A stretch of DNA of 64,000 nt from Candidatus Obscuribacterales bacterium (GTDB lineage: Bacteria > Cyanobacteriota > Vampirovibrionia > Obscuribacterales > Obscuribacteraceae): the NCBI GenBank assembly GCA_019752635.1, contig JAIELX010000059.1:63191-127190 (forward strand). The letters run 5' to 3'. Every line of letters starts with the position of its first letter. Within the stretch, counting starts at the first letter, position 1. The position numbers and the translations under genes are program-made. Positions 4,558 through 6,579 of the stretch are shown here, one piece after another. The notes under the pieces are model-generated. The model did no database searches, was not told the origin of the DNA, and worked only from the letters and a program-made list of their open reading frames with translations.

Positions 4558-6579
4558 TTACTTCTTGTCTATAACCTGAGGAATAATTGTGCCCGCAACA
4601 ATCGCCGCCGCACCGGCACGGCCTTTGAATTCACTCATGAAAGCTCTCATCCCGCCCCGTGTTTGATAGTGTGAGGCTATCTCCTTCGCCGCTTTTTCGC
4701 GCTTAGCTTCGTCTTCCGATACCAAGTCCTTTGCCAGTTCGCTGGCCTTTTCCTCCTTGACGCCTTGCTTTACCAACGCTGCCTTTACCGGACCCTCGCG
4801 AAGAACAGCTGCTGCCGCTGCCGTTCTTTGCTCCACTGCCACTGCGTCCCTCTTCAAATCCGTCACTGATGAATCAGCAATTGGACCATCAGCGACCTTT
4901 TGCTCGCCGGGCACAGGCAGTCCTATTGTTTCGTGTACAGCTTTTACGACCTCCGGTACGCCATCGGCATACGCTTTTTGAAAGTCCCGGAACTCATCTC
5001 TCTTGGACTCGGACCAATCTCCAGTCCGATCGATTTGGTCGAGTGTATTCTTGAGCAATTGCTTAACTTGCTCCGGTGTTTTAACTTCAGGACCATCAAA
5101 GGCTAGGTCTCTGGCTTGATCCAACCCCTCTAAGATAGTAGACGAAAAGGCGGGCTTTGCCGCTGCTGGCGCTTTGCCTGCTTCCGGCTTCGCGGCGGAC
5201 TTCTCTGCCGCCACTTCGTCGATTCGGGCTTGAGCCGGGTCAGCATCCATCATTCCATAAAGAGCGTAAATCGCAGGTCTGCCAGTTAACTTTCCGGGGG
5301 TTTTGTCAGCTTTGCTTTCATCGAGATACATCTCTCCATTGCCTAGCACTGCGGATGCAGGAGTAATGAAAATCATTTTGCCGCTGCGGTCGTAGGTCAA
5401 TTGCTCCGGAGCCAGACCGGCATCCTTTTCAATTTGACGAAGCGCATCCCAGCTCAAGTCATTACCGTTCATGCCCAGCAGCCCGTATGCTTTGGTAAGC
5501 TCCTTCTGCAGCTTTTCGTCTACCCGTGCCCCCCTGTGTCCGCCGGGATACTCAGCGACAGTCTCAAACATATCTCGTTCCACCGACACGCGTTTCGATT
5601 CAGTTTTGGCACGGCTGTTATCGCCAACGGTTCCGGTTTTGTAATCCGCCGGCAATGAAAGTTTTTTCTCTACTAAAAGCTTGTCGATCGTTGCTGCAAC
5701 TTCGGCGACTTTCGCTACCGGAAGATAGATCGTGAACCCTTTGGAGTTCTGTCCTTCGCCGTTGGCCCTTTGGCCGCTGCCGATATCTTCAAATGTTGGA
5801 TCAAAGAAGTTCGGGTCAAATGTCTTATATTGACTCACCGACCCTTCTTTGCGAAGTTTTTCAAGTAGGGGTAGCAGTTCCTTCTGTAAACTTGCCATGT
5901 CTTCTGAGTTTAGACCGGCAACGTGAAGTTTCACTTGCTCGACCTTGGCACCGTCTTTCATTTCGCTGTAGTACCACTTTTGACCGCTCCGCGGATCTCT
6001 CTTTAAGTTGATTGTTTCGTCGCCGATTTGTACTTGGCGCGTGTACTTGTACTTCTCTGCTTCGGGAGTTCGAACTGTTACCGTGGTACCGTCGATAACC
6101 CTTGTTCGCTCCTTCACCGTTCCTACGACATCGTTCTCTATTTCTCGGAGAGTGACTTCCGGTTTCGGCTGTGCAGCTTGTTTTCCGTCGCCAGCCGCTT
6201 CTGGCTTGGGCGGTTCACCCGGCTTGTCCCCTTTTTCGTCGCCGGGGGTATCGTTCTCTGTTGCACGCGTTTCCACCGCGTGCCCCGGGGCGGTAGGTGT
6301 TTCAGGACCGTCCGTTTGTGAATCTGCGGAACCCGCTTTGGGATCACCGACGGTTTGATAGTTGCCGTCCCCCGGCGCAGTAGCATCAGAAGCGTTCGTG
6401 CTTCCGTCACTCAGTGTGAGGCTTGGAATGACACCTGCTTGCTCAAGTTGCGCGGTGTTCAGCGCCGCGAGCGCCACAGGAGAATGATGCCTATAGTCTC
6501 CAGGGGTGACAAACCCGAACGCTTTTGGTTCTTCTAATTCAGATTCCGTATGATCGACAAAATCGAGTGCGTCTGCCAT
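4558..6579 (-). CDS. paralogue B: acidic leader + putative phospho-Ser/Thr-lyase-like (HopA1/OspF/LanKC-N-like) core + conserved C-terminal module
   Basis: The ORF is open to 6615. I prefer ATG 6579 (MADALDF) with GGGAGAG upstream. Core motifs: VKLHVAG (nt 5923-5931), QYKTFD about 35 aa later, and SKGFTIYLP. The tail RGGMRAFMSEFKGRAGAAAIVAGTIIP is homologous to the tails of A and C. Confidence 0.7.
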   Translation of the reverse strand: MADALDFVDHTESELEEPKAFGFVTPGDYRHHSPVALAALNTAQLEQAGVIPSLTLSDGSTNASDATAPGDGNYQTVGDPKAGSADSQTDGPETPTAPGHAVETRATENDTPGDEKGDKPGEPPKPEAAGDGKQAAQPKPEVTLREIENDVVGTVKERTRVIDGTTVTVRTPEAEKYKYTRQVQIGDETINLKRDPRSGQKWYYSEMKDGAKVEQVKLHVAGLNSEDMASLQKELLPLLEKLRKEGSVSQYKTFDPNFFDPTFEDIGSGQRANGEGQNSKGFTIYLPVAKVAEVAATIDKLLVEKKLSLPADYKTGTVGDNSRAKTESKRVSVERDMFETVAEYPGGHRGARVDEKLQKELTKAYGLLGMNGNDLSWDALRQIEKDAGLAPEQLTYDRSGKMIFITPASAVLGNGEMYLDESKADKTPGKLTGRPAIYALYGMMDADPAQARIDEVAAEKSAAKPEAGKAPAAAKPAFSSTILEGLDQARDLAFDGPEVKTPEQVKQLLKNTLDQIDRTGDWSESKRDEFRDFQKAYADGVPEVVKAVHETIGLPVPGEQKVADGPIADSSVTDLKRDAVAVEQRTAAAAAVLREGPVKAALVKQGVKEEKASELAKDLVSEDEAKREKAAKEIASHYQTRGGMRAFMSEFKGRAGAAAIVAGTIIPQVIDKK

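Follow-up and report, generated by a model that had tools for sequence, protein, structure and literature searches.

A phospho-Ser/Thr-lyase-like domain family of Obscuribacterales associated with FHA domains and protein kinases

We analysed a window of 64,000 nucleotides from a Candidatus Obscuribacterales bacterium (assembly GCA_019752635.1, contig JAIELX010000059.1, positions 63,191 to 127,190 of the forward strand), in which three paralogous genes, here called A, B and C, lie together with a small gene and a gene for a giant HEAT-like repeat protein (Table 1). Obscuribacterales are non-photosynthetic relatives of cyanobacteria. We focused on B, whose central domain, judged from sequence profiles and a predicted structure, is best explained as an undescribed, Obscuribacterales-specific branch of the superfamily that comprises the phospho-Ser/Thr lyases OspF/SpvC and the lyase domains of the lanthipeptide synthetases LanKC/LanL. 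To our knowledge, phospho-Ser/Thr lyases have been described in two settings only, as type III effectors that permanently inactivate host mitogen-activated protein (MAP) kinases and as dehydratases of peptides that are made on the ribosome and modified afterwards (RiPPs, namely lanthipeptides and thioamitides). The family of B would be a third and unannotated branch, with ~90 clusters at 50% identity and no Pfam or NCBIfam model, in a little-studied, non-pathogenic lineage.

Gene B and its conserved residues

The open reading frame (ORF) of B extends upstream to a GTG at 6615, and the window from 4558 to 6615 on the minus strand comprises 685 codons. Residues of B are numbered on this ORF, and the number in the gene product is the ORF number minus 12. 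The peptide quoted in the initial annotation matched the translation of 4558-6615 exactly, and the span that it had singled out as lyase-like, 5230-5967, corresponds to aa 217-462 of the ORF and was correctly given as about aa 205-450 of the gene product. The actual domain was a little longer and consists of an N-terminal β-hairpin, an OspF-like β-α-β-β-α core and a C-terminal subdomain of ~110 aa. The Pfam search and the comparison with A and C showed that B has neither an FHA domain nor a kinase-like region, as had been proposed, and that what the three paralogues have in common is limited to a brief N-terminal motif and the last ~200 aa (38% identity between B and A). At the end of the C-terminal module of B, basic residues come after a hydrophobic tail, AGAAAIVAGTIIPQVI (window 4567-4617), and the two together look like a tail anchor. 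Overall, B is a modular protein with long disordered linkers.

Conservation was counted over 68 full-length homologous domains. The core of B contains the short motifs VKLHV, YKTFDP and SKGFTIY, with K264 lying 35 residues past K229, and the series that the initial annotation had picked out in B (K-L-H, Y-K 35 aa further on, then KGFTIYLP) agreed in order and spacing with the OspF/SpvC profile. The Lys and His residues that it had proposed as catalytic proved to be conserved among the homologues (Table 1). In the strand that follows, K292 was invariant (68/68), and F294 and T295 were each present in 67/68 domains; K292 is a candidate phosphate ligand. R342 and R347 are candidate counterparts of SpvC R213 and R220, although this correspondence is not established. 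The family-specific C-terminal subdomain has conserved residues of its own, namely Y430 (68/68), E433 (65/68) and R446 (68/68).

Table 1. Position and basis of the features at the locus (window coordinates; residue numbers of B refer to the 685-codon ORF)
Feature	Position	Strand	Remarks
Gene B	4558-6579	minus	673 aa; ATG at 6579 is the start in public gene calls
Phospho-Ser/Thr-lyase-like domain of B	5206-6060	minus	ORF aa 186-470, gene-product aa 174-458; family alignment, AF2, Foldseek, hhalign
K229-L-H231	5923-5931	minus	K 68/68, H 64/68; aligned to SpvC K104 and H106
Y263-K264, in (Y/W)KT(F/M)DP	5824-5826	minus	K264 67/68; aligned to SpvC K136 (WKVTD)
K292-G-F-T-I-Y297 strand	5725-5742	minus	Y297 66/68, aligned to SpvC Y158 (QFTLY)
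R342-V-S-V-E-R347	5575-5592	minus	R342 68/68, R347 60/68
Y430, E433 and R446 in the C-terminal subdomain (Y..E ... TGRPAIYALY)	5278-5328	minus	family alignment
N-terminal motif of B, LEQAGVIPSLTLSD	6406-6447	minus	pattern scan
C-terminal helical module of B, also present in A and C	4561-5160	minus	sequence comparison of paralogues
Small gene	4178-4546	minus	122 aa; starts 11 nt past the B stop codon
Paralogue A	1703-4036	minus	777 aa; FHA 3434-3664; kinase-like 2567-3394; C-terminal module 1706-2311
Catalytic-loop motif of A, GDHDAHAGNF	2900-2929	minus	HipA/PI3-4K-like region
IDLD motif of A	2837-2860	minus	HipA/PI3-4K-like region
Paralogue C	6859-8961	plus	700 aa; divergent from B; FHA 7180-7401; kinase-like 7531-8358; C-terminal module 8422-8958
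Giant HEAT-like repeat protein	9479-17005	plus	2508 aa; homology to neighbours in other loci

Similarity to known phospho-Ser/Thr lyases

We modelled the core of B by AlphaFold2 (AF2) with a 33-sequence family alignment, which gave a mean predicted local distance difference test (pLDDT) of 93.7 and a predicted template modelling score (pTM) of 0.90; the single-sequence model (pLDDT 40) was unusable. In a Foldseek search of the PDB with this model, all matches at ranks 1-19 belonged to the phospho-Ser/Thr lyase superfamily. The best match was OspF (3i0u, E 2.3e-4, probability 1.00), followed at ranks 2-5 by 8sao, 8sam, 8sap and 8cav, of which 8sao is ThurKC and 8cav is CuvL, and the remaining matches in the top 19 included SpvC (2q8y, 2z8m, 2z8o, 2p1w, 2z8p, 4h43), SalKC, PneKC, Chromobacterium VirA (3bo6) and HopA1 (4rsw). 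Structures of the OspF family (3i0u, 2q8y, 3bo6, 2z8m, 2p1w and others) were matched with E 2e-4 to 1e-2 and probabilities of 0.98-1.00. HopA1 structures, at ranks 17 and 28, were weaker matches, and LxmY of the class V LxmKY complex (9dk2_B) stood at rank 25. The overlap with the known lyases was confined to the core, to which B adds the N-terminal hairpin and the C-terminal subdomain.

The same kinship was seen by profile comparison. We collected 93 proteins of the OspF/SpvC family, aligned 27 of them and checked the SpvC sequence against PDB 2z8m. When this profile was compared with the B family by hhalign, 33 sequences gave Prob 71.9% and E 3.4e-5, and an alignment of 68 sequences raised this to Prob 90%, E 1.6e-6 and a score of 49.4. 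The reversed profile scored 13.5, 60 column shuffles scored 14.5 ± 2.8 (max 26.6), and 60 shuffles of 12-column blocks, which kept the motifs and lost their order, scored 27.6 ± 4.1 (max 43.5), so that the real score exceeded all 120 shuffled controls and the motif pattern is not a product of chance. The similarity to phospho-lyase folds that the initial annotation had suggested was found both by Foldseek and by hhalign.

In SpvC, K104 serves in phosphate/enolate binding, H106 is the general acid and K136 the general base, Y158 positions the base, and R148, R213 and R220 are further phosphate ligands (PMC10604976, PMC9486802); ThurKC K65/H67/K94 are the equivalents (PMC10604976). The hhalign alignment paired K229 with K104, H231 with H106, K264 with K136 and Y297 with Y158. 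In the LanY/HopA1 branch, the K-x-H pair is absent and an Arg stands in place of K104 (PMC9486802), and since B has K-x-H, it resembles the OspF and LanKC/LanL branch. K292, R342, R347 (60/68) and R446 are conserved basic residues that could act as phosphate ligands in B, hhalign being weak in this region. These results give good support to a lyase fold in B whose K/H/K/Y catalytic set is intact, and it is probable that B performs β-elimination on phospho-Ser/Thr.

Among known systems, the type III effectors OspF, SpvC, VirA and HopAI1 (PF03536) gave the best structural matches (3i0u, 2q8y, 2z8m, 3bo6). They share with B the β-α-β-β-α order of the core and the K-x-H, (W/Y)K and FT(I/L)Y columns that match K104/H106, K136 and Y158, and their lyase domain stands alone and acts on proteins, as that of B may do. 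Unlike them, B has no PF03536 match and is 11-16% identical with template modelling scores (TM-scores) of ~0.3-0.43; it has the extra hairpin and C-terminal subdomain, and members of its family are fused to FHA domains. The domain of B lies in a 673-aa, apparently tail-anchored protein and those of its relatives in giant proteins, whereas an OspF-type effector has ~240 aa and an N-terminal MAPK-docking motif. The effectors come from proteobacterial pathogens and the B family from Obscuribacterales, and no secretion-system gene, type III or other, was recognised among the window genes scanned against Pfam.

The lyase domains of LanKC/LanL (ThurKC 8sao, CuvL 8cav, SalKC and PneKC) matched B in structure as strongly as OspF did, work downstream of a Ser/Thr kinase and have the K-x-H pair and base Lys, which match ThurKC K65/H67/K94 via SpvC (PMC10604976). 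In contrast to these enzymes, B showed no fused Pkinase or LanC cyclase domain in the Pfam search, no precursor peptide or RiPP genes lie near it, the kinases found beside the family are HipA-like or Hanks-type and have genes of their own, and its substrate is probably a protein rather than a leader-guided peptide.

The class V lanthipeptide and thioamitide pathways (CaoK/CaoY, LxmK/LxmY, TvaC/TvaD) resemble the locus in having kinase and lyase on separate polypeptides that are encoded side by side, and LanY/HopA1 shares the fold (4rsw and 9dk2_B among the Foldseek matches). LanY/HopA1 (PF17914) differs from B, which keeps K-x-H, by the Arg in place of K104 and the loss of H106 (PMC9486802). 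The partner kinase is APH-like there and HipA-like or Hanks-type near the B family; B has no PF17914 match and probably no peptide substrate, and FHA domains are absent from class V systems. The initial annotation had proposed a phosphorylate-then-eliminate chemistry split over separate proteins; the arrangement agrees with this, yet the split itself is already known from class V lanthipeptide and thioamitide pathways (PMC9486802), and what is new relative to that design is the protein-level context and the coupling to FHA domains.

The family, its fusions and its neighbours

An exhaustive HMMER scan of 1.84 billion cluster representatives detected 106 relatives of B. The same ~285-aa core was present in ~90 of them (clusters at 50% identity), and the rest matched the C-terminal module only. 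All named relatives came from metagenome-assembled genomes labelled Candidatus Obscuribacter, Obscuribacterales, Melainabacteria or 'Cyanobacteria bacterium', and all were annotated as hypothetical or FHA-domain proteins. A word-indexed homologue search with the B core and with the 33-sequence family alignment returned no match, though the collection that was searched contains P0001, which is 61% identical; because the HMMER scan gave 106 relatives, this miss reflects a limit of the search method and not orphan status. The related-locus search with the B protein alone returned two Obscuribacterales loci only. In the literature searched, we found no earlier description of a phosphothreonine lyase with an FHA domain or in Melainabacteria, nor of a polymorphic toxin with HopA1.

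We then scanned 91 lyase-bearing proteins with an FHA profile seeded from Pfam-verified FHA domains. An FHA domain was present in 21 of the 91, almost always at most a few dozen residues before or after the lyase domain. The fusion was confirmed by Pfam for P0069, P0038 and P0022 and by the NCBI product name for P0025; P0020 (2,588 aa) has two lyase and five FHA domains, and P0021 (7,735 aa) has a single lyase domain and three FHA domains. Since phospho-threonine is what FHA domains bind, the fusions suggest that the new domain, too, has phospho-Thr as its ligand. A T-P-x-D phospho-site in the linkers, considered as an FHA ligand or lyase substrate, was dropped because it is not conserved in orthologues. 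Among P0020, P0021, P0015 and P0011, up to two or three lyase and five FHA domains occur per polypeptide, and the remaining large parts of the scanned giants P0069, P0064, P0071 and P0018 showed no Pfam domain.

The lyase domain lies at or near the C-terminal end of the 2,500-7,700-aa proteins P0021, P0069, P0064, P0038 and P0071, of which P0038 carries an RHS repeat. A clear transmembrane tail anchor was predicted from sequence at the end of many family members. The C-terminal module and hydrophobic tail of A, B and C also occur in P0040, P0044, P0045, P0047, P0060, P0065, P0070, P0074, P0094 and P0102, all of which match B at aa ~465-685. P0040 bears two FHA domains and a transglutaminase-like domain on this scaffold, P0045 has a weak Ntox28 match, and locus L004 has a paralogue of the lyase protein that is like it at both ends and differs in the middle. 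The N- and C-terminal scaffold is thus constant around varied centres (lyase, kinase-like, pseudokinase, transglutaminase-like and others without assignment), which means that the enzymatic domain in the middle is exchanged and the rest is kept.

The N-terminal motif was defined as [LIVFM]-P-x-[LIVFM]-x-[LIVFM]-x-[DEGSNQ]. When 113 family proteins were scanned, 28 matched within their first 200 residues, and in 26 of the 28 the pattern started at residues 47-61 (examples are GVIPSLTLSD and LELPEITLFD). It lies at 3874-3897 (aa 47-54) in A and at 7003-7026 (aa 49-56) in C, and among window ORFs of at least 150 aa it occupies that position only in A, B and C. The pattern was also found in P0001, P0003, P0005, P0014, P0016-P0018, P0022, P0046, P0080 and L012 12242-13516. 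The motif-bearing proteins differ widely in their central domains and C-termini, and the motif looks like an export, targeting or docking signal. Taken together, B is best described as a member of a new family in a known superfamily with a new architecture, marked by fusion to FHA domains, by a modular scaffold with a tail anchor and by giant proteins of many domains. These domain arrangements couple the lyase to FHA phospho-Thr readers and protein kinases.

The related locus L007 is syntenic with the window, with a C-like gene upstream and a downstream homologue 79% identical to window ORF 12-872. Its B orthologue (45% identity) is directly followed by a gene for a Hanks-type Ser/Thr kinase of 835 aa, in which a transmembrane segment is predicted. 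This kinase, which has a long C-terminal region, and a 160-aa gene stand in place of the 122-aa gene and A of the window (L007 2462-4969 against window 1703-4546), so that one kinase has apparently been replaced by a non-homologous one. In L009, the end of the lyase gene and the gene of a Hanks kinase overlap. Kinase-like A and the Hanks kinase that occupies its place in L007 belong to different families, which supports a functional link between kinase and lyase.

Within the window, the FHA domains previously assigned to A and C were recovered by Pfam (E 2e-8 and 3e-9, respectively). The central region of A resembles a HipA/PI3-4-kinase-like fold: hhalign placed GDHDAHAGNF and IDLD on the catalytic loop GATDGHAKNF and the Mg-binding YDII of E. 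coli HipA (E 0.008), and matches below the curated threshold were obtained to HipA_C (0.008), LepB_N (0.013) and TIGR03843 (5/6 members, best 7e-4). The kinase-like profile of A and C had no PDB sequence match. In C and its orthologues P0031 and P0026, the kinase-like region is kept and the catalytic GDHDAHAGNF/IDLD is replaced by GDKAFEAKDF/NKGIE; because catalytic-loop and metal-binding residues are lost, C is probably a pseudokinase that still bears its FHA domain.

B, the 122-aa gene and A lie on the same strand, and the promoter and terminator scan, which was uninformative overall, showed no terminator-like site between them. The 122-aa protein resembles the C-terminal half of a 272-aa protein of L004 (E 8e-4, small database), related genes of 268 and 272 aa follow the lyase genes in L003 and L004, and it is the N-terminal part of these 268/272-aa proteins to which an L008 protein is similar. 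Members of this small family lie 0-14 nt past the lyase gene in four loci (window 4178-4546, L003 4297-5103, L004 11451-12269 and L008 2770-3357) and the only match is a weak one to DUF1292 (E 0.02); a role as inhibitor, immunity protein or chaperone is conceivable. The small ORFs at 4178-4546 and 9056-9337 were considered as RiPP precursors and rejected on sequence, as they are not Ser/Thr/Cys-rich, in line with the earlier remark that no Ser/Thr-rich precursor peptide is nearby.

Homologues of the giant HEAT-like protein adjoin lyase-bearing paralogues in L004 (30-5150), L010 (3182-8674) and L012 (4206-9833), and shorter relatives occur in L011 (15780-18203) and L003. These HEAT-like neighbours have 1,700-2,500 aa and share 23-25% identity with the one in the window over ~1,200 aa; the latter has no Pfam match of its own. 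The window protein, which the initial annotation had named as a possible target, was also considered as a Ser/Thr- or Cys-rich substrate and set aside for its ordinary composition (S 6.5%, T 5.9%, C 0.3%).

Proposed function and alternative explanations

From the aligned residues, K264 would abstract the α-proton of phospho-Thr or phospho-Ser in a protein, K229 would stabilise the enolate and bind phosphate, H231 would protonate the leaving phosphate and Y297 would position the base, with the conserved K292, R342, R347 and R446 holding the phosphate. The product would be dehydrobutyrine or dehydroalanine, and the site could not be phosphorylated again. B, presumably held at the membrane by its C-terminal tail, may remove phospho-sites written by a neighbouring kinase, which would be the HipA-like domain of A in the window and Hanks-type kinases in the sister loci. 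FHA domains, on A and C here and fused to the lyase in roughly a quarter of the family, may read the same mark, and the shared N- and C-terminal modules, possibly with the giant HEAT-like neighbour, may gather writer, readers and irreversible eraser. We tentatively prefer this reading, in which B is a lyase acting in the producing cell, at the membrane, on kinase-written and FHA-read sites, and we give it somewhat less than an even chance. The fold, the conserved catalytic residues, the FHA fusions and the kinase adjacency were observed, whereas the activity of B, its substrate, its cooperation with A and its place in the cell are inferred from them.

Comparable modules of FHA proteins, Hanks kinases and PP2C phosphatases are the FhaA-FhaB-PstP-PknA/B operon of M. 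tuberculosis and PpkA-Fha1-PppA of P. aeruginosa. By analogy, the B locus would likewise combine a membrane Ser/Thr kinase, FHA readers and a membrane-anchored remover of phosphate, with the difference that a B-type eraser would destroy the phospho-acceptor residue whereas PP2C hydrolyses. We know of no cell-internal signalling module with a lyase eraser. A further step, that Obscuribacterales own a writer-reader-irreversible-eraser circuit for phospho-Thr on proteins, assembled via the terminal modules and the HEAT-like scaffold, is rather doubtful. The same doubt attaches to its proposed steps, in which a membrane-tethered kinase (A or a Hanks kinase) would write, FHA domains would read and B would make dehydroamino acids. 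If true, it would mean lanthipeptide-type chemistry on the producer's own proteins, as a one-way switch or as reactive dehydroalanine/dehydrobutyrine sites, and not as an attack on a host.

Several observations weigh against an in-cell phospho-lyase. Neither B nor the family profile matched PDB sequences, and B had no match in Pfam (including PF03536 and PF17914) or NCBIfam, even at E<=10; 33 family members likewise gave no PF03536 or PF17914 match at that threshold. However, the OspF profile also misses the accepted homologues LanKC and HopA1 among PDB sequences, and for that reason the absent HMMER matches are not evidence against homology. The TM-scores are low (0.30-0.43, with a root-mean-square deviation of 5-7 Å over ~165-185 columns), and no counterpart of SpvC R148, R213, R220 or D201 was established in B, hhalign being unreliable there. 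The kinase assignment of A is weak, and no kinase adjoins the lyase gene in L003, L004, L005, L006, L010 and L011. The strong diversification, the swapping of central domains and the position of the lyase at the end of giant proteins are more reminiscent of conflict or effector systems than of housekeeping signalling, and an irreversible eraser is unusual for a cell's own signalling. The initial annotation had joined kinase A, the FHA readers and lyase B into one system; this wider reading has partial support, in that the kinase adjacency in L007 and L009 speaks for it and the kinase evidence for A is weak.

The strongest competitor, which we consider unlikely, is that B is a delivered effector or polymorphic toxin that performs the same lyase reaction on phosphoproteins of another cell, such as MAP kinase activation loops of a eukaryotic host or prey or the Ser/Thr kinases of rival bacteria, after the manner of OspF, SpvC and HopAI1. 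The N-terminal motif would then be an export or chaperone signal, which would fit its fixed position, the tail anchors would insert into the target membrane, and the small gene would encode an immunity protein or chaperone. All characterised stand-alone members of the OspF family are secreted effectors (PMC9486802; source names). In the B family, the swapped centres (lyase, kinase, pseudokinase, transglutaminase-like and weak Ntox28), the lyase domain at or near the C-terminus of 2,500-7,700-aa giants, including P0038 with its RHS repeat, and the small gene that follows are hallmarks of effector and polymorphic-toxin systems, and ~90 clusters at 50% identity inside one order-level lineage point the same way. 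A small gene lies 0-30 nt past the lyase stop in the window, L003, L004, L006 and L008, and 167 nt past it in L005, but these downstream genes belong to more than one family, and the 122-aa type occurs in 4 of 12 loci. Moreover, the lyase domain is central in B itself, and no trafficking domain, signal peptide or secretion-system gene was recognised in B or its scanned neighbours. PADLOC matched no defence-system model and returned only a meaningless match in A (E 0.004).

FHA fusions, and membrane Hanks kinases whose kinase domain is cytoplasmic, typically belong to the internal phospho-signalling of a cell and argue against delivery; FHA proteins and Hanks kinases may instead regulate secretion, as PpkA-Fha1-PppA does in type VI secretion. 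The tail anchors fit tethering to the producer's membrane and insertion of an effector into a target membrane alike. The in-cell lyase is favoured over the delivered effector, but the two are not well separated by the evidence.

Another explanation, which we regard as improbable, keeps the lyase fold and changes the function, so that B would be a pseudoenzyme that binds phosphopeptides, or an enzyme for some other reaction whose substrate is phosphorylated or acidic, with the K/H/K/Y constellation put to a new use. The kinship to known lyases is indeed remote (11-18% identity, TM 0.3-0.43), the family-specific C-terminal stretch of ~110 residues has invariant positions of its own (Y430, E433 and R446), the counterparts of the SpvC arginines and D201 are not established, and lyase activity has not been demonstrated for HopA1 itself, a protein of the same fold (PMC9486802 describes it through its homologues). 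Yet pseudoenzymes usually lose their catalytic residues, whereas the base, the acid and the enolate/phosphate Lys are conserved at 94-100% in ~68 divergent sequences and are arranged as in OspF and LanKC, and FHA fusion and kinase adjacency point to a phospho-Thr ligand. Finally, a RiPP dehydratase in the style of LanK/LanY or TvaC/TvaD, in which B and a kinase would dehydrate Ser/Thr of a small precursor peptide, is very improbable: the separate kinase and lyase (PMC9486802), the Foldseek match to LxmY 9dk2_B (rank 25) and the two small ORFs nearby fit it, but no LanC-like/LanX cyclase, protease or exporter gene was found in the neighbourhood, B is a 673-aa, apparently tail-anchored modular protein with disordered linkers that retains the K-x-H lost from the LanY/HopA1 branch (PMC9486802), and FHA fusions and giant multi-lyase proteins are ill-suited to RiPP tailoring enzymes.

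If the lyase is active, the family would represent either a new class of effectors or toxins or the first bacterial module that erases its own phospho-marks irreversibly, and in the latter case dehydroamino acids would be installed in proteins. It might also be a source of new enzymes with which dehydroalanine or dehydrobutyrine can be introduced into proteins.

Elsewhere in the window, the gene for an exosortase (EpsH) and the end of the gene for a 1,053-aa VIT-domain protein overlap by 4 nt (30900-35617, minus strand); this points to a PEP-CTERM-type sorting system in the genome and is unrelated to B.

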